64,000 nt of DNA from Thermodesulfobacteriota bacterium (GTDB lineage Bacteria > Desulfobacterota_D > UBA1144 > Nemesobacterales > JAJCZQ01): assembly GCA_965203965.1 (NCBI GenBank), contig CBDBDR010000017.1, positions 1,120,001 to 1,184,000 of the forward strand, read 5' to 3'. Shown piece by piece: positions 768 through 56,379 of the stretch (its first letter is position 1; every line of letters begins with the position of its first letter). Below the pieces are notes generated by a model, which saw only the letters and a list, made by a program, of their open reading frames with translations, was not told where the DNA came from and ran no database searches. The position numbers and the translations under genes were made by a program.

Positions 768-1178
768 TTGTCTGAATCTATAAATCTCAAAATAATAACA
801 CCCAAGATGCTTGTAATAGACGAGCAGGTTAAACTGGTAGCGGCTCCGGGACAGCTAGGAGAATTTGGAATACTCCCCGGTCATGTTCCATTTATCTCAA
901 CTCTCTCACCGGGATATGTGAAATTTACCGCAGAAGAAAGCACAGAGGCAAAATCTATAATCATTCACGGAGGACTTGCCGAAGTGAGCGAAGACACTGT
1001 CAGAATACTCACTGACGACGCTGAATTCCCGGACTCAATTGACAATGAAACAGCAAGAAAAGAGCTTGAGTTTATTGAAAATCAGATTAAAGAGCATTCG
1101 GGAGATTCAAAGAAACTGAAGGAACTTAATCACAAACTCAAACTAGCACAAGTTAGAGCTTCAATCTCACCCAAGTAA
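768..1178 (+). CDS. atpC: ATP synthase F1 subunit epsilon
   Basis: GEFGILPGHVPF motif; follows atpD. Confidence 0.96.
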   Translation: MSESINLKIITPKMLVIDEQVKLVAAPGQLGEFGILPGHVPFISTLSPGYVKFTAEESTEAKSIIIHGGLAEVSEDTVRILTDDAEFPDSIDNETARKELEFIENQIKEHSGDSKKLKELNHKLKLAQVRASISPK

Positions 1179-1244
1179 AGCTAAAAATTTGTTTCTTAAT
1201 ATAACGGGACACGTAAAGAGGAATTCAAACGGGGAAACGATCCT

Positions 1245-1287
1245 TGTTAAACACTGTTTAAATCCTGTTTAATTGCCATTAAAGCGT
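1245..1287. repeat. Imperfect 10-11 bp tandem repeat with TTAA(A) core
   Basis: TGTTAAACAC/TGTTTAAATCC/TGTTTAATTGC/CATTAAAGCGT. Confidence 0.55.
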
Positions 1288-1399
1288 CAATAATTCCGCT
1301 AAAAGACCTCTCTAATACGAATTTCTCTGGGGTTTATACTGGAACTTATTTGCTCTTTGCAATTGACTATTTCTTTGTTCCAATCTCGCAATTTGCAAG

Positions 1400-2329
1400 C
1401 AAATTTCCGACCCAGAAACAGGAGAGATACTTGCCGAGAGATTTCCCCCGCATCGCTTAAAAACTATCTATCGCACAAACCTACTATCTGCCTATGCTGT
1501 GGGCAGGGAAGCGTCTATTGAGAAAAATAAAAAGCGCCGTCCTTTTGCCCAATTTATCGCACTTCTTGATTCCCGAACCCGTGATGATCACGCTGAGCTT
1601 CACGGCAGTATATTTCCGGTTGATGATCCTTTCTGGAACACTTTTACTCCACCGCTGGATTACAACTGCCGTTGTAACAAACGGACGTTGACCCAAAGAC
1701 AGATAACCAGCAGAGAATGGGAGGTTAGCAGTTCAAAAGGCAAGCTGGTGCGGAGTTCTTTTGATCTTGGCAAATCCGAAAACAACAGAAAAGTAAGCGT
1801 TACCGGATACCGCCTTTCCCCCACCAAAACGGTCTTTCCTCACGCCAGCTTTGGCTTTAATCCCTACAAAGCTACTTATCAGCCTGATTTAAATAAATAT
1901 AAAAACACCGTTGCTTATCAATATGTGCGGGCAACTGTTTTTGGAGAAGGTTTTAAGAGGTTGGTAAGAGGGAGAAGCAATAAAGGTTGGATGCCCGTTG
2001 CGGTTTTAAATCAGGAAATGACCAAACGACTCGGAGCGAAAAACCAAACAATACTCCTATCTGCAGACACCGTCAGGGAGCATGCAAAAAAAATAAACCT
2101 AAAAGATTATCAGTCAATTCAATCTAAAATTGACGACATTTCTGACAACAAACTTGAAAATATCAAGATCATTCCCAATCCTGACAATAGGCAATTACTC
2201 ACTTGGGAAGAGAAAGGTAAGCATCACATGATAGCTCTTAAAATACTGCCAAACGGGGAGAACTTTTTTCTCACCATGGGCAGGGTGCGGAAAGGAAACA
2301 TTAAGAAATACGAAGAGAGAAATAAATGA
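1400..2329 (+). pseudogene. 5'-truncated phage MuF/SPP1 gp7-family head morphogenesis protein with C-terminal extension resembling PBECR-type (Barnase/EndoU/ColE5/RelE-like) nucleases
   Basis: DSRTRDDH...DDPFWNTFTPPLDYNCRC MuF signature; the frame extends upstream of GTG 1499 as QISDPETGEI..HRLKTIYRTNLLSAYAVGR with no nearby ATG/GTG start; tail PVAVL..LGAKNQTILLSADTVREH..LKDYQSI. Confidence 0.75.
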
Positions 2330-2330
2330 A

Positions 2331-2447
2331 CTGTCGCCTGGTCAGCTCTGTCCGTGCCAGAAGGACTGCCGTTCCCTTCGTCGCCTTATACGGCTTCTGA
2401 AGTAGCCAGGGGTACCCCACTTTTGGATGCAGATTTTGCAGGCACAG
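2331..2447 (-). ncRNA. Candidate structured ncRNA convergent with MuF-nuclease gene
   Basis: 67/117 G+C in AT-rich context; terminal complementarity CTGTCGCCTG/CAGGCACAG; internal helices; minus-strand promoter just upstream. Confidence 0.5.
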
Positions 2448-2471
2448 ATTTTAATTTGTCTTTTGTTGTCT

Positions 2472-2501
2472 AATATAGCACCTGTGAGAAGTAGTTGTCA
2501 A
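2472..2501 (-). promoter_or_regulatory. sigma70-type promoter TTGACA-N18-TATATT with extended -10 TG
   Basis: Reverse complement reads TTGACAactacttctcacaggTGcTATATT. Confidence 0.65.
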
Positions 2502-2515
2502 ATCTTACAAAACCG

Positions 2516-2971
2516 CTAAATAAAGCCATTATTTACCATCTTTATAAATTCTGCCATATTACAAACGCGGGAGATTTGCCCGTCTTGTTGTTTTTTGATC
2601 CATTTAATAGCCCCTTGTGAGTGTCCCCCGCCGTCAATTACAATAGCTGTAGAAAAACTATAGTTTTGTTTAATGTTAAGAACTAAATACGGCAACTTTT
2701 CCTCTGTTGTTCCTTTTGACTGTTGCCATTTGCACTCTATAATCAGAAAGTTAGGGTGTTTTTCAGGGTGATAAAGTAAAAAGTCAGCTCTTGTGTCTTT
2801 GCCTTCATAAAGGCTCTTTGCTATTGGGAACTGTGCGGTGTAGGTTGGCTGTTCCAAGATACTACCCGCTTCAATTCTGTTTGCTGGAAACCATAGGTAG
2901 TTACAACCTATGATAAGTTGCTCAATTTGATTTTCAAACGCAGCACCCGTTCTATTTGCCTTGTCTCTCAT
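2516..2971 (-). CDS. PD-(D/E)xK nuclease, putative restriction endonuclease partner of adjacent MTase
   Basis: GAAFE...RADF...IIECKWQQSKGT.EEKLP motif; abuts the MTase stop codon. Confidence 0.75.
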   Translation of the reverse strand: MRDKANRTGAAFENQIEQLIIGCNYLWFPANRIEAGSILEQPTYTAQFPIAKSLYEGKDTRADFLLYHPEKHPNFLIIECKWQQSKGTTEEKLPYLVLNIKQNYSFSTAIVIDGGGHSQGAIKWIKKQQDGQISRVCNMAEFIKMVNNGFI

Positions 2972-3793
2972 TTAGTAGTTCTTAATTAAAAATTCTGATA
3001 TGTTTTGTCTGCTTTGTGCTTTACAACTCACCCTTCTGGGTGCTTCTACATTTACGATATTAAAGCTCTTGTATAAGCCTTTTATCTCATCTGTGGCAGA
3101 ATTTGAAAGCATGAAATAAACCCCATCTTTGTTCAGTGCCTTGCAAAAATCAGCTAATTCTATGTGTCGGTCTATGGAAAATCCTTTGTCAGAATAACCG
3201 CTATACGTTTTATGGTATGGAGGGTCTAAATAAACAAAGTCATTCTTGTTTGGTTTGCAACTTGTAAAGTCTTCATTTTTAATTGTTGTGGTTTGCAAGA
3301 CCTTATGACATGCCATAATTCCTATGTCATCAAGAATCAGAGGATTTGCATATTTGCCAAAAGGAACGTTAAATTTGCCTTTACTATTTTCTCTATACAG
3401 TCCGTTAAAACAGGTCTTATTCAGATAAATAAACCTTGAAGCAACCTCAACAGGTGAGGTTATAACGTCTTTGTTTCTGACTTTGTAATAGTAGGTTTTG
3501 TTATGATTTTCTTTATGATATTTTAAGCTATCAATCAGTTCTAACGGCTTCTTTTGTATGACTTTATAAGTGATTATAAGGTCTATATTTACATCGCTAA
3601 TAACCGCCTTTTGTGGTTGCAACTTCCAGAACAAAGCCCCACCACCAATAAACGGCTCATAATAGCCTTTATAAAATTCGGGCAAGTTCTGCACTAAAAC
3701 ATTTAGAATGCCCCTTTTTCCTCCCACCCACTTTACAAAGGGACTTATACCGTTTGAGCTGTGATTTGTTTCTTTGAGATCGTTAGGGTTCAC
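2972..3793 (-). CDS. Dam/D12-family N6-adenine DNA methyltransferase
   Basis: KWVGGK, YYEPFIGGGA, FNGLYRENSKGKFNVPFG and DPPY motifs. Confidence 0.93.
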   Translation of the reverse strand: MNPNDLKETNHSSNGISPFVKWVGGKRGILNVLVQNLPEFYKGYYEPFIGGGALFWKLQPQKAVISDVNIDLIITYKVIQKKPLELIDSLKYHKENHNKTYYYKVRNKDVITSPVEVASRFIYLNKTCFNGLYRENSKGKFNVPFGKYANPLILDDIGIMACHKVLQTTTIKNEDFTSCKPNKNDFVYLDPPYHKTYSGYSDKGFSIDRHIELADFCKALNKDGVYFMLSNSATDEIKGLYKSFNIVNVEAPRRVSCKAQSRQNISEFLIKNY

Positions 3794-3799
3794 TATTCA

Positions 3800-3828
3800 A
3801 AATTAAGCAACTTTAAGCTATTTGTCAA
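3800..3828 (-). promoter_or_regulatory. sigma70-type promoter for MTase (TTGACA-N17-TAATTT), probably leaderless transcript
   Basis: -10 ends 6 nt before GTG start at 3793. Confidence 0.5.
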
Positions 3829-3932
3829 TTCCCCTCTTTAAGCACAACGCATTTGTCTTAAATGGAAATATAGCAAAAAATGCAATAAATACAGTGAGTT
3901 AGCAGTTGCAAATAAGAGTAGATGTTTAAATT

Positions 3933-3978
3933 ATTCCCCTCCCGTGGAGGGGTGGCAGGCAAAGCCTGACGGGGTGGT
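3933..3978 (+). repeat. REP-like palindromic element, copy A
   Basis: ATTCCCCTCCCGTGGAGGGGTGGCAGGCAAAGCCTGACGGGGTGGT; two hairpins; similar inverted copy at 50540-50585. Confidence 0.8.
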
Positions 3979-3990
3979 TAAAAAAGGTGG

Positions 3991-4326
3991 TTAATCCCCC
4001 TTGCCTTTTTTAAGAAATCTCAAAATGCTCTCCAGCCGTCGCTCCATCGCCTCAAGTCGCAAGTTTACATCTCTTATTTCTTGTTTGATTGCGTCTTTCT
4101 CATCTTTTAAATAAACTTCCTTCTCCTCAAAAAACGCTTCCCGGCGAACATTAAACTTGCCCATGATTTTATCCATTGCGGAAGCAGGTATCATTGCCCT
4201 TCCAGCCTCCCAATTCCCCACGGTTACTCGCGAAACTTCTAAGAGGTCAGCCACGTCTTGTTGCCTTAATCCCAGCTTGACTCTCAACAACTTTAAATTG
4301 TGAAAATTTTTACTTTTTCTTGACAT
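3991..4326 (-). CDS. XRE-family HTH transcriptional regulator (phage repressor-like)
   Basis: LKLLRVKLGLRQQDVADLLEVSRVTVGNWEAG; C-terminal coiled coil. Confidence 0.88.
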   Translation of the reverse strand: MSRKSKNFHNLKLLRVKLGLRQQDVADLLEVSRVTVGNWEAGRAMIPASAMDKIMGKFNVRREAFFEEKEVYLKDEKDAIKQEIRDVNLRLEAMERRLESILRFLKKGKGD

Positions 4327-4488
4327 TGTGCAAAAAATATGAGAAGATGAAAGTTATGAGATTGGCAACAAAAAAAGACACACCGAGACGCCGATCTCAC
4401 ATTTCCAAGGAGAAACGCACACTGACCACGAGCACATATTCTTGCCACTTCATAAGTGTCCCTCTTACAATTAGGTATTAAAAAGACC

Positions 4489-7020
4489 CTAACTACACTT
4501 AGAATAAGCACAAGACCTGCAAGTCATGCAGCCGGATTCAAATGCCAATGCTCGGTCACCACATTCCGGACAAACTTCAGCTATAATATCGGTGGAGATT
4601 GACTTTCTGATGAAAAGATCAGTTTGTTTTACGTAATCTGGAGTTTTTTTTTCCTCGTTAGTATCTTTAACCACAAAGCGCTTTTTCAGCACCGTTGCTA
4701 TGGCATCAGGAATGGACATCACCAATTTTCCCTCAGAGAAAACAGGAGAAGAACCTCCTATTCCTTCCAATTGGTCTACAACATCTTTAACACTTATGCC
4801 GGATCTGAGGGCTAAGGATACCAACCTGCCGGTTGCCTCTGCATCTGCCATTGCGGTGTAACCCGACTTCCCAATCTGCACAAACACCTCAAAAGGTTTA
4901 TCTTCAAATATATTTACAGTTACGTATAGGTTTCCGTAGCCGGTTTTTATAACCTCTGTAAATCCGGTCAAATACTGGGGTCTTTCTACAGGTTTGATCT
5001 CTGGAAGAAGGGTGGGATGAGGGGATGGGGTGAGGTTGGACTGGGTGAGTGACATCCCTTCATCCCGGGATGAAATCCCTTCTGAGGTGTTGGTCAATTC
5101 TCCTTTTGCTTCCTTTATTAATTTTGCTCCTTCTTCCGTCACTAAAATACCTTCTCTGGAACCTTCCCTATAAACCGTTATTCCTTTGCACCCCATTTTC
5201 CATGCAAGGAAATATATCTTTTCAACTTCTTTCAGAGTAATATCAGCGGGAAGATTAACTGTGCTGGAAATGCACGAATCTATGTGCTTCTGAATTGCCG
5301 CCTGCATACGAACCCGCATTAGAGGGTTTATTTCATGCGAAGTAACAAAAGTGTTTGGTAGTTCTGTCTCGTCACAAATGTTAAATTCTTTTATATAATC
5401 TCTAACCAGAGGGTGATAAACTTTGAATTCCTTCTCAGAAAGAGATTCGGAGCGCCTGTAGTAGGAGAGGGCGAACATTGGCTCAACGCCACTTGTTGTT
5501 CCAGCTAGCACAGAACCGCTGCCAACAGGAGGAACTGTTAAGATACAGGCATTTCTCAACCCCTGTTTTTTAATTTTTTCAACTATATCCCCGCTCACCG
5601 AATCCAGAAATGGTCTTGACAAGTGTGTATTCAGATCAAAAGCTGGAAAACTTCCTTTTTCTTGTGCTAGATCAGAACTTGCTTCATAAACAACATTCTT
5701 AATGTGTTCAAACATTTTATCTGTAAACTTAATTGCCTCATAGCTGTCATATTTTATGTTTAATTTGGCAAGCATATCCCCAAAACCCGTAAAACCAACT
5801 CCTATTCTCCGCGAAAGAGTTGAAGCAGTGGTTTGAAACTCTATCGGATGCTTTTCCATGTTGTAGTCGAGTATATCATCAAGAAATCTTACAGAATACT
5901 GAAAAGCCCTCTCAAGATTTTCCCAGTCAATCTTTGCATTCTCTGTAAATTCATCCCTTACAAACAAAGACAGGTTAACGTTTCCAAGACAGCAACACCC
6001 ATAATCTTCAAGTGCTTGCTCGCTACACGGATTTACACCATTAACTTCCATACCTGCATATTCTGTAGGTGAATATTTTTTGACTGCATCCCAGAAAATA
6101 AGACCCGGTTCAGCAGAAGTCCATGCTGATTTAACTAACCTATTCCAAATATCCCTTGCCTTTACTTTTCTACTGACTTTAACTTTCTCGCTTTCAAATT
6201 TAAGCTCAAAATCCGTGTCTCCTTCTACGGCTTTCATAAATTCATCGGTAACCTTTACTGATATATTTGCAAACTGCACTTTGCTCCTTGCTAAATCATT
6301 TTTTATATCAAGAAACTCCATGATATCGGGATGATCCACCCTGATAGTTATCATCAAAGCACCTCGTCTACCCGCTTGTCCTATTGTGCCAGTGGTTGTG
6401 GACAATAAATCCATAAAAGAAACAGCACCTGTGGAATAAATAGCAGAGTTATTGACGGGAGCTCCTTTTGGCCTCAAGATGGAGATGTCCGTTCCCACTC
6501 CACCACCGAAGGAATAGGTTCTTGCCGCTTCCTTGCACCAATCAAAAATACCTTCAATTGAATCTTCTTTAATTGGCATATAATAACAGTTAAGAAGTGT
6601 TGACCGCCTTTTCTGTCCAGCACCAAAAAGAATTCTTCCGCCCGGTATAAATTTGAAATCAGATAGGAGCCAGAAAAATTTCTTCTCCCACTCTTCTTTA
6701 AGCCGACTAGTCTTCTCCGGCGATGATATTTCTCTTGCAATCCTGCTCCAAAGCTCTTCTGGGGTTTTCTCAATAATCTTTCCGGATAAATCTCTGAGGG
6801 CATATTTTTCGTAAAACACACGTGCTCTTAATTCATCCCCATCAAAAGCGTCTACAGTCTCTTGAGGTATATCCATAACACTGTCTGAAAAACCAACTGA
6901 TCCTTCCTGATGCTCTGTATCATTTTCAAGAATCTCCCCAACCTGCTTCTTGAAATCTTCTTGGTCAATCACATCTAAGTCTCTACCATTACTCTGGTTA
7001 GGTTGAATTTTTTCCGACAT
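4489..7020 (-). CDS. nrdJ: Adenosylcobalamin-dependent (class II) ribonucleotide reductase with C-terminal TSCPD-like domain and Zn ribbon
   Basis: LLNCY, GGGVG, RRGA, NPCSEQ, CCLG motifs; terminal CPEC...CMTCRSCAYSKC; NrdR boxes upstream. Confidence 0.92.
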   Translation of the reverse strand: MSEKIQPNQSNGRDLDVIDQEDFKKQVGEILENDTEHQEGSVGFSDSVMDIPQETVDAFDGDELRARVFYEKYALRDLSGKIIEKTPEELWSRIAREISSPEKTSRLKEEWEKKFFWLLSDFKFIPGGRILFGAGQKRRSTLLNCYYMPIKEDSIEGIFDWCKEAARTYSFGGGVGTDISILRPKGAPVNNSAIYSTGAVSFMDLLSTTTGTIGQAGRRGALMITIRVDHPDIMEFLDIKNDLARSKVQFANISVKVTDEFMKAVEGDTDFELKFESEKVKVSRKVKARDIWNRLVKSAWTSAEPGLIFWDAVKKYSPTEYAGMEVNGVNPCSEQALEDYGCCCLGNVNLSLFVRDEFTENAKIDWENLERAFQYSVRFLDDILDYNMEKHPIEFQTTASTLSRRIGVGFTGFGDMLAKLNIKYDSYEAIKFTDKMFEHIKNVVYEASSDLAQEKGSFPAFDLNTHLSRPFLDSVSGDIVEKIKKQGLRNACILTVPPVGSGSVLAGTTSGVEPMFALSYYRRSESLSEKEFKVYHPLVRDYIKEFNICDETELPNTFVTSHEINPLMRVRMQAAIQKHIDSCISSTVNLPADITLKEVEKIYFLAWKMGCKGITVYREGSREGILVTEEGAKLIKEAKGELTNTSEGISSRDEGMSLTQSNLTPSPHPTLLPEIKPVERPQYLTGFTEVIKTGYGNLYVTVNIFEDKPFEVFVQIGKSGYTAMADAEATGRLVSLALRSGISVKDVVDQLEGIGGSSPVFSEGKLVMSIPDAIATVLKKRFVVKDTNEEKKTPDYVKQTDLFIRKSISTDIIAEVCPECGDRALAFESGCMTCRSCAYSKCS

Positions 7021-56066: not shown

Positions 56067-56230
56067 GAGACCACCACGTATATTAAATAAATTATCAAGA
56101 GCATGTGGCAAAATCTCCATGCAAGAGTGACGATATTCCTGATATCCGAAAGTTACCCACAGGATGGGCAGAGAGGGGGTGTTGGAGTCCTTCAGCCATG
56201 TTCAGGGGAACGTCAGGGTTTCTTTTATAA

Positions 56231-56297
56231 CAGATTAAATGGCAGTTAAACGCCAGTTAAATACCAGTTAAATGCCATTTAAGGCATCATTAAACAC
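56231..56297. repeat. 11-bp tandem repeat (CAGTTAAAyrC units)
   Basis: CAGTTAAACGC CAGTTAAATAC CAGTTAAATGC with degenerate flanking units. Confidence 0.75.
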
Positions 56298-56379
56298 CGT
56301 TTCAGGCTTCACCTGTCAACCCCCTCCAGAGGAGGGGAATTACCCTGCCCCGGGACTAACCCGTCAAGGAAGGGGAATT
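56294..56379 (-). repeat. Degenerate REP-like elements
   Basis: CAGGCTTCACCTG..CCCCTCCAGAGGAGGGGAATT and a second ..GGAAGGGGAATT end. Confidence 0.6.

Follow-up and report, generated by a model that had tools for sequence, protein, structure and literature searches.

A 64,000-nucleotide (nt) stretch of contig CBDBDR010000017.1 from a Thermodesulfobacteriota bacterium, referred to throughout as the window, carries on its minus strand, at 2320-2471, a small gene for a structured RNA that converges on the end of a gene for MuF, a head protein of Mu-like phages. We regard it as very likely that this is a real structured small-RNA gene and that it is linked to MuF proteins whose C-terminal tails are of the PBECR3 RNase type. 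Judged from sequence comparison, it belongs to a previously uncatalogued family of structured RNAs that occurs in Mu-like phages of several bacterial phyla. The initial annotation of this stretch had proposed a MuF-nuclease gene followed by a promoter-driven, convergent structured RNA instead of a protein immunity gene. As an observation this proves largely right: a structured RNA with a minus-strand promoter does partner PBECR3-type MuF, and the resulting MuF-RNase/non-coding RNA module is absent from Rfam 15. The functional interpretation, that the RNA serves as an antitoxin, decoy or antisense regulator, is plausible but unproven. The features that carry the argument are these:

2320..2471, minus strand: small structured RNA gene, assigned to the tRNA-like MuF-partner family (covariance-model match over the whole model)
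2472..2501, minus strand: sigma-70-type promoter of the RNA, TTGACA-N18-TG-TATATT (consensus match, paralog identity)
2351..2448, minus strand: multi-helix core closed by helix P1 (covariation, motif conservation)
2328..2348, minus strand: terminator hairpin, stem 2328-2333 with 2343-2348, loop 2334-2342 (covariation)
1367..2329, plus strand: 5′-truncated MuF gene relic with a PBECR3-like C-terminal RNase domain (Pfam, homologue alignment, AlphaFold2 model)

The small RNA gene and its family

The near-consensus promoter described in the initial annotation, TTGACA-N18-TATATT with an extended TG, is present on the minus strand at 2501-2472. It matches the consensus at 11 of 12 positions and is the joint best of 17 promoter-like sites in 1100-4600, a region whose shuffled versions contain 7.4 ± 2.5 such sites. 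Within the RNA, helix P1 pairs 2351-2358 with 2441-2448 (plus-strand coordinates) and encloses the P2 hairpin (2429-2439), which carries GCAAAAUCU, and a T-arm-like hairpin (2359-2379) whose stem, P5, pairs 2359-2364 with 2374-2379. After the terminator hairpin, read along the minus strand, comes a stretch rich in U (∼2311-2327) that reaches over the MuF stop codon. The end of the RNA model, at 2320, falls within the MuF frame by 10 nt, stop included. Compared with its shuffles, the minus strand has the better fold (z -2.16, with 5 of 200 shuffles as good), while the plus strand gives no fold signal (z +0.86 against shuffles).

Several elements of the structure proposed earlier are found in the DNA. 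The stretch is indeed richer in GC, at 0.50-0.52 in 120-nt windows versus 0.33-0.40 in the surroundings, and the segments CTGTCGCCTG (2331-2340), CAGGCACAG (2439-2447) and GGGGTACCCC (2409-2418) are all present. The helices that were drawn from them are alternatives without backing from covariation. The helix between CAGAAGCCGU and ACGGC..UUCUG is not among the covarying helices, the GUCC/GGAC pseudoknot is unsupported by covariation, and the supposed closing pair of CTGTCGCCTG with CAGGCACAG does not covary, the CTGTCGCCTG segment containing the terminator loop 2334-2342.

A paralog of the element lies elsewhere in the source genome (C17:1440025-1440197), directly behind a truncated MuF gene with the same tail type. 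Homology runs from the MuF stop exactly to the -35 box and then ends, with an identity of 164/180 (91%) over 2320-2501 and of 55/55 over the promoter and leader (2447-2501). Neighbouring coding DNA is less conserved, aligning over 490 of 676 nt at 82%. With the paralog's 19 substitutions, the consensus fold of the minus strand reaches -40.35 kcal/mol, compared to -27.4 ± 4.0 when the substitutions are placed at random (0 of 500 placements reach the observed value). In the RNAalifold consensus of the two copies there are 36 pairs, of which 3 are compensated and 0 broken. The plus strand is not distinguished in this way, as 16% of random placements reach its observed value.

A first covariance model, R1, was seeded from the window copy and this paralog, and found matches in relatives and beside other MuF paralogs of the source genome. 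A second model, R2, scores the window RNA, which is one of its seed members, at 106.8 bits over the whole model, and finds 49 matches. These are spread over 24 of 101 genomes of the same order, and the source genome alone has 12. The positive genomes fall mainly in two families (18/37 in f8 and 5/33 in f2); R2 has no match in f1, which holds the closest relatives (0/4), or in f7 (0/15). Covariation was assessed on 42 aligned sequences spanning several families and a gammaproteobacterial metagenome-assembled genome (MAG); an 18-sequence version was also computed. In the larger set, 92.5% of cells pair, versus 70.4% after shuffling (0 of 500 shuffles reach the observed value) and 42-58% in slid controls, and compensatory changes on both sides occur in 22 of 26 pairs, although the alignments are fitted to the model, which biases pair counts towards structure and counts against taking them at face value (the slid controls share this bias). 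P1 is compensated in 8/8 pairs with 95.5% of cells paired, the terminal hairpin in 6/6 and P5 in 4/6. Covariation at the level of the family is strong.

Family members are ∼125-150 nt long and have a sigma-70-type promoter of their own. Their fold consists of several hairpins enclosed by a long closing helix, and at the 3′-end there is an intrinsic terminator or a stretch rich in U. Unpaired motifs are conserved as well, namely GCAAAAUCU after P1 and a ACCAGGCGA-type loop in the terminal hairpin with a U tail following. A convergent promoter conserved among relatives, for which the initial annotation had suggested a test, does precede most copies: it has the form TTGAC(A/T)-16/18-TA..(A/T)T and ends ∼17-19 nt ahead of the first motif, this distance being 32 nt in the window.

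Comparison with known families and searches at the level of DNA sequence gave no counterpart to the element in the collections named here. Rfam 15 has no match on 2320-2501 at E ≤ 10 (1100-4600 scanned), nor on the RNA in seven relatives' loci and eight IMG/VR loci at E ≤ 1. A DNA-level search in 60 relatives' genomes returned only matches of chance size, the best being 19 nt (E 0.0085), and exact 18-20-nt words of the element had 0 matches in two scans of Joint Genome Institute (JGI) metagenome contigs and 0 in IMG/VR. Two distant members compared by blastn with 50,697 isolated phage records gave no match. Full-text searches of the literature, covering main texts and few subscription journals, returned no paper describing the RNA family.

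Contigs from three metatranscriptome runs of one study, labelled marine, match the window over 2346-2501, 2320-2502 and 2392-2501 with 0-1 differences. The match ends at 2501-2502 and the contigs continue into differing flanks, and the same hard boundary therefore recurs in other strains. In these runs (X1-X3) contig cover is present on the element and absent on the MuF body (1870-2136) and the restriction-modification genes (2671-3738), where uncovered parts prove nothing; the contigs carry neither strand nor ends, and depth is unusable.

Association with MuF, the F-G spacer and PBECR3 tails

The genomic context of MuF was examined for 41 of the 49 matches in the order. Seventeen of the 41 abut a MuF gene or a C-terminal fragment of one convergently, with gaps of -24 to +69 nt, and three follow a MuF gene or fragment at a distance of 184-398 nt, as second copies. 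A single match (in genome G005) is co-directional, immediately after MuF and with its own promoter. The remaining 20 have no MuF-like sequence within 1.5 kb, save that one of them has frameshifted tail remnants, and such orphan RNA copies score up to 99 bits. Genome G039 contains two head-to-head tail fragments, each of which keeps its own convergent RNA.

In intact Mu-like phages and prophages, the RNA occupies the gap between gene F (MuF) and gene G. The gene order is terminase, Portal_Mu, MuF, RNA, tRNA-Ala and gpG in genome G051, Portal_Mu ... MuF, RNA, gpG and Mu-like protease in a Zhongshania MAG, and Portal_Mu, MuF and RNA in genome G073. Across 80 genome and 80 IMG/VR MuF loci, R2 matches 1 and 8, respectively, and the iterated model, R3, matches 6 and 21, in every case on the opposite strand directly after MuF. 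The six genome loci are from Zhongshania, two Balneolaceae, Rodentibacter, a Brocadiaceae MAG and a cyanobacterial MAG. At 25 of these 27 R3 loci the match overlaps the end of the MuF frame by at least 2 nt (2-34 nt), and it extends to where the next gene begins. That gene is gpG (Phage_tail_S) at 24 of the 25 loci tested, and at locus L039 as well. Among isolated phages, Haemophilus phage SuMu gives a weak match directly behind MuF (L244 2173-2306, minus strand), of 17.8 bits and with a canonical T-arm. No RNA match is found in D108, MP22, YMC12/01/R24 or JBD67, whose genes F and G overlap. By this gene order, the RNA is in origin an intergenic spacer RNA of genes F and G of Mu-like phages, which could not be seen from the letters of the window alone.

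Three of these loci hold other items in the neighbourhood of the RNA. In G051, the tRNA-Ala gene (L160 6760-6836) lies between the RNA and gpG within the head module of a Mu-like prophage. The F-G gap of SuMu is 570 nt and holds an annotated 66-amino-acid (aa) hypothetical open reading frame (ORF), SuMu_29 (L244 2338-2538), the RNA match being in the unannotated part before it. In genome G040 (L161 9858-12541), translated frames beside a standalone MuF and RNA module repeat one peptide motif many times, which suggests a clustered regularly interspaced short palindromic repeats (CRISPR)-like or other DNA repeat array; that module has a type IIG restriction-modification gene at its opposite flank.

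RNA matches go with PBECR3-type tails and never with PBECR2-type or tail-less MuF. Among 78 IMG/VR MuF loci, 18 have both the RNA and a PBECR3 match, 17 have PBECR3 only, three have the RNA only (with window-like tails) and 40 have neither, giving a Fisher p of 1.7e-5 for RNA versus PBECR3 in a set whose relatives are not independent. PBECR2-type loci have an RNA match in 0/6 cases, and MuF frames shorter than 340 aa in 0/17. PBECR3 scores in the RNA-bearing IMG/VR relatives reach 71 bits.

The window tail itself aligns over its whole length with homologues that match Pfam PBECR3 (PF18812) at 16-31 bits, among them P0018 (31.4), P0012 (28.3), P0007 (27.5) and P0003 (22.0); P0018 alone among these exceeds the 30-bit cut-off. 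The BECR fold consists of an N-terminal helix and a sheet of 4-5 strands. An AlphaFold2 model built from 39 sequences has a predicted local distance difference test score (pLDDT) of 85. In this model, residues 226-310 are closest to BrnT, a weak match (Z 5.0, root-mean-square deviation 3.3, 75 residues aligned), followed by RelE, HigB and YafQ at Z 3.5-4.3, and the best Foldseek E-value is 0.025, for RelE. The modelled fold comparison is thus weak but consistent with an RNase of the RelE/BrnT type. The active site of PBECR domains is described as a His in the first helix and a Ser or Thr in a late strand (Iyer et al., 2017, PMC5512222). In the model, His239 (nt 2081-2083) ends helix 233-239 and Thr303 (nt 2273-2275) lies in strand 300-306, in a column that is Thr, Ser or Val in homologues; these residues would occupy the places of the active site, as inferred from that description. 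The earlier proposal that the tail is a PBECR-type RNase is supported by homologues and by active-site placing, and comparison of folds puts RNase-type folds (BrnT, RelE) at the top of the matches, if only weakly.

The RNA also bears a likeness to tRNA. Seven of the 25 distant members printed have the T-arm motifs GGUUCGAGUCC or GGUUCGAGCCC, with the 3′ strand of P1 directly after them, and a GAG(U/C)CC remnant at the place of the T-arm and an (A/G)AAUCU loop are present in all members. By its sequence, the last hairpin of the distant members is a canonical tRNA T-arm, which together with P1 has the look of an acceptor/T-arm unit. ARAGORN detects 0 tRNA or transfer-messenger RNA (tmRNA) genes in the whole window, and in 12 loci it calls none where the RNA matches lie. 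A tRNA or tmRNA gene was accordingly rejected as an identity for the element, with neither ARAGORN nor the Rfam tRNA model giving a match at the RNA, and so was an attachment site or tRNA fragment, there being no tRNA match and the fold signal being strand-specific.

Relics in the window and the source genome

The window begins with atpD and atpC (1-1178), and MuF homology begins only at ∼1397. The Phage_Mu_F domain (PF04233) matches residues 27-104 of the 320-aa frame at 73.8 bits, against a gathering cut-off of 29.6. The alignment covers profile positions 32-110 of 112, so that the start of the profile is missing. The frame opens at 1367 after a stop codon, has its first ATG/GTG/TTG codon as the GTG at 1499, and ends with the TGA at 2327-2329. 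Full-length MuF homologues are 387-435 aa long, with ∼100 extra N-terminal residues compared to the window frame. Because of the late profile start, the lack of an early start codon and the absence of ∼100 N-terminal residues, the window MuF is a 5′-truncated relic, outside any prophage, and the MuF-nuclease gene of the initial annotation is not intact. The 5′ third is replaced by a repeat, and a second RNA copy is found far downstream in the window:

1216..1396 (approximate start and end), no strand: multi-copy repeat in place of the MuF 5′ third (blastn pieces at at least 10 other genome sites)
56077..56232, plus strand: second, orphan RNA copy (R2 51.5 bits)

This orphan copy lies between dnaE and a type I hsdM gene. 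Its terminator hairpin is weakened, and nothing resembling MuF is present within 1.5 kb. The spacer that holds the first RNA gene measures 186 nt (2330-2515). Beyond it, a PD-(D/E)XK nuclease gene (2516-2971) and a Dam-type methylase gene (2972-3793) are convergent with MuF, and past the methylase gene follow a helix-turn-helix (HTH) gene and nrdJ.

The source genome, which is 99.5% complete, has six MuF copies or fragments alongside its RNA copies. Two of the six are intact, with 406 aa each. A common N-terminus is combined with four C-terminal tail types, and the copies are sited among housekeeping genes. Four RNA types stand alongside the four tail types, and linkage by descent would confound any tracking between them. 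No gpG, terminase or portal gene was found in this genome, save for a 62-aa portal tail directly upstream of one intact MuF; the portal was looked for by tblastn, the control for a Pfam Portal_Mu search being silent. MuF and the RNA are thus, by gene content, what survives of prophages in the source genome.

Side observations bear on how these modules are bounded and arranged. A restriction-modification cassette (PDDEXK_11 nuclease, D12 Dam-type methylase, HTH regulator; 2516-4326) lies between the -35 box of the RNA and a repeat at 3800-3999. In the paralog, hardly anything separates the RNA promoter from a repeat of the 3800-3999 type, and the joint of 2501 to 3933 is seen in one DNA run, so that the cassette looks like an insertion, or the paralog like a deletion. 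The repeat pieces 1216-1396 and 3800-3999 flank the island. Elsewhere they are contiguous, with joints of 3978 to 1278/1279 in RNA and DNA runs, and they occur at at least 10 genome places, several beside MuF/RNA modules and one beside the second RNA copy (∼56240-56340). An element resembling a miniature inverted-repeat transposable element and a cassette boundary are both candidates for their nature. The two intact 406-aa paralogs (G000:C17:464127-466243 and C17:1418013-1419961) differ in their tails and have a convergent RNA each. Beside them are extra RNA copies and an inverted, internally deleted MuF fragment, in arrays reminiscent of the orphan modules of polymorphic toxins. Downstream of one intact copy, P0002, and beyond its RNA, are two co-oriented ORFs of 168 and 122 aa (G000:C17:462995-463870; also C13:2293-3168, reverse-oriented).

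Possible roles of the RNA and comparison with known systems

Our preferred reading, held tentatively and with a little less than even confidence, is that the RNA is a neutralising partner of the RNase borne by MuF. It draws on gene order, retention in relics, tracking of RNase type and tRNA-likeness: the RNA takes the position in which a small immunity ORF is usual for MuF toxins, cassettes of an orphan tail plus RNA are reminiscent of orphan immunity modules, as are lone RNAs, MuF and RNA pairs outlive prophages in a manner that recalls addiction, RNA matches track the RNase type, and a tRNA-like RNA adjoins a colicin-D-like RNase. A 2026 preprint groups PBECR3 with colicin D-like RNases. Under this proposal, the RNA would be made constitutively from a prophage or relic and would keep the MuF RNase harmless in the cell that encodes it. 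By the likeliest route, that of a decoy, the tRNA-like RNA would occupy the RNase as a pseudo-substrate. As a second layer, the RNA would act as an antisense, pairing with the F message at its 3′-end and with G around its ribosome-binding site. Our confidence in neutralisation divides roughly evenly between the decoy and antisense routes. Action in trans on the protein is favoured by the co-directional copy, the orphans and the conserved loops, and antisense action by the constant convergent placement across the F stop and the ribosome site of G.

In its most specific form, which we think rather unlikely as it stands, the RNA would be a tRNA-mimic immunity factor, a constitutively produced pseudo-substrate plugging a colicin-D-like tRNase on the phage head protein MuF. 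Such a mimic would protect the lysogen, the assembling phage and cells that hold only a relic from the RNase of related incoming phages. If true, this would be the first case of an RNA, rather than a protein, as the immunity partner of a polymorphic or virion-delivered toxin, and it would explain why MuF and RNA modules outlive prophages.

Several observations weigh against neutralisation, or against parts of the evidence for it. Among the PBECR3-positive IMG/VR loci, 17 of 35 are without an RNA match, and 14 of these 17 keep a gap of 100-152 nt after MuF. The window protein has no Pfam PBECR3 match at E ≤ 1, its membership resting on homologues, and the fold matches of its tail are weak (Z ≤ 5). 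With MuF truncated, there is nothing to neutralise at the window locus, where the RNA is at best an orphan partner. The RNA-library contigs run beyond the promoter and so give no start near 2465, where the initial annotation had expected one, and RNA libraries can contain DNA. The two ORFs behind P0002 could be cargo or a protein immunity pair. Finally, the near-universal convergence, with the 3′-end of the RNA on the F stop, its 5′-end by the G ribosome site and its promoter over the G start, suits a purely regulatory antisense RNA equally well.

That alternative, a cis-antisense RNA at the F-G junction of the late transcript with no toxin-neutralising role, is one we consider unlikely, if well short of improbable. 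It would silence leaky late expression in lysogens, or uncouple or time F and G, and the fold would only stabilise or process the RNA. The geometry speaks for it, since the RNA is on the opposite strand in 20 of 21 MuF-adjacent matches in the order and in 27 of 27 MuF-locus matches in phages or prophages, and since the match extends from the F stop to the gpG start with its -10 box in or beside the spacer between the ribosome site and ATG of G. However, 20 of 41 copies lack both MuF and G in their vicinity, with scores that still reach 99 bits, one copy runs in the same direction as MuF, and relics retain the RNA with its promoter after G is lost, breaking exactly at the -35 box. Loop motifs and the T-arm are kept across phyla, which an exactly complementary cis target does not need, and the matches track the PBECR3 tail rather than the F-G junction as such.

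A second alternative is that a tRNA-like phage RNA has another job, either as a decoy for the host's tRNA-targeting defence nucleases or as an RNA cofactor or cargo of the MuF tail packaged in the head, its link to F being through co-inheritance or assembly only. The canonical T-arm and acceptor-like helix of several members and the existence of orphan copies would suit this, as would the RNA binding predicted for the inactive MuF tail of Mu, whose own PBECR domain is called inactive (Iyer et al., 2017, PMC5512222). We hold it to be improbable, as the RNA is confined to PBECR3-type MuF, MuF and RNA are kept together where the rest of the phage is lost, and both ARAGORN and the Rfam tRNA model fail to recognise the RNA.

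It is very improbable that the element has no function of its own and is decaying intergenic DNA or a terminator region with a chance promoter. It does lie between convergent genes in the window and includes a hairpin-plus-U element, but compensatory changes affect 22 of 26 pairs across the 42 sequences, promoters are kept at a fixed distance, conservation of the element exceeds that of neighbouring coding DNA and the plus strand lacks a fold signal. Least credible is a small protein as the real immunity factor, from a 24-aa frame whose ATG overlaps the MuF TGA and whose first 15 codons are the same in the paralog, or from one of two 39-aa frames: 1-nt indels in the paralog shift every candidate frame, so that the products part ways after 6-15 residues, neither 39-aa frame has a Pfam family, and in the relatives printed the region varies by indels and paired substitutions.

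The small ORF was rejected as a candidate on these grounds, in keeping with the earlier remark that no substantial ORF follows the promoter: the 39-aa frames (on either strand) and the 24-aa ATGA-coupled frame are all broken by the paralog's indels. The 24-codon frame (2326-2400, plus strand) starts at the ATGA overlap with the MuF stop and diverges from the paralog after its 15 identical codons, an identity attributed to conservation of the 3′ half of the RNA rather than to coding.

For the biology of phages, the main gain is a well-supported structured RNA family, with promoter, fold, terminator and covariation. It is tied to one nuclease type on a virion protein, which makes the avoidance of self-harm by carriers of MuF-RNases testable, and it offers an annotation marker for relics of Mu-like prophages. 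If the RNA neutralises the RNase, RNA antitoxins would extend to large packaged effectors and to cassettes like those of polymorphic toxins, and tRNA mimicry would be added as a mechanism.

Among known systems, the MuF-PBECR tail has been described before. The fusion of MuF to PBECR is the simplest of the architectures described for these polyvalent proteins (Iyer, Burroughs, Anand, de Souza and Aravind, 2017, PMC5512222), and, as there, the window family combines MuF with a C-terminal BECR-fold RNase in a gene that follows the portal gene in Mu-like phages and prophages. Section 19 and the MuF passages of that paper mention no partner RNA, whereas here a conserved convergent small RNA is present, the window copy being a relic. 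MuF polymorphic toxins are a second close comparison, with a conserved N-terminus, variable C-termini and a partner immediately downstream, and the truncated tail-plus-partner cassettes seen here resemble their orphan modules. Jamet et al. (2017, PMC5576092) report a small ORF behind 89.4% of 191 muf toxin genes. The partner there is thus a small ORF, while here it is a non-coding RNA on the opposite strand.

The initial annotation had drawn on type III toxin-antitoxin systems, of which ToxIN (PMC8860590) is an example. The likeness is that an endoRNase would be neutralised by a structured RNA that binds it. ToxI is a tandem array of short repeats that lies upstream of the toxin on the same strand and is processed by it. 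On anatomy, the analogy fails: the RNA here is a single unit, convergent and downstream rather than upstream, and the toxin fold differs. Tandem Repeats Finder detects no tandem repeat in 2250-2560, and a tandem-repeat antitoxin was rejected on that result.

Bacterial RNAs that resemble tRNA include the tRNA-like domain of tmRNA and the Y RNA YrlA. They share with the present family an acceptor-like helix next to or stacked on a T-arm and, in some members here, the GGUUCGA motif. Unlike them, the RNA described here lacks a CCA end and an anticodon arm, and its genomic partner differs.

In type I toxin-antitoxin systems of this layout, a separate convergent promoter drives the antitoxin RNA, which overlaps the toxin message at its 3′-end, the pairs are often found in prophage remnants, and the toxins are small membrane peptides. 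Examples with convergent, 3′-overlapping antisense RNAs are txpA/RatA and bsrG/SR4 of Bacillus subtilis. The geometry in the window fits this arrangement, with a promoter at 2501-2472 and a predicted RNA overlapping the end of the MuF frame. However, the partner here is an RNase-bearing MuF-PBECR3 virion protein of ∼400 aa rather than a small hydrophobic peptide, at 25 of 27 loci in phages or prophages the RNA overlaps the ORF by no more than 2-34 nt, and the RNA has a conserved, multi-helix, tRNA-like fold that recurs in orphan and co-directional copies.

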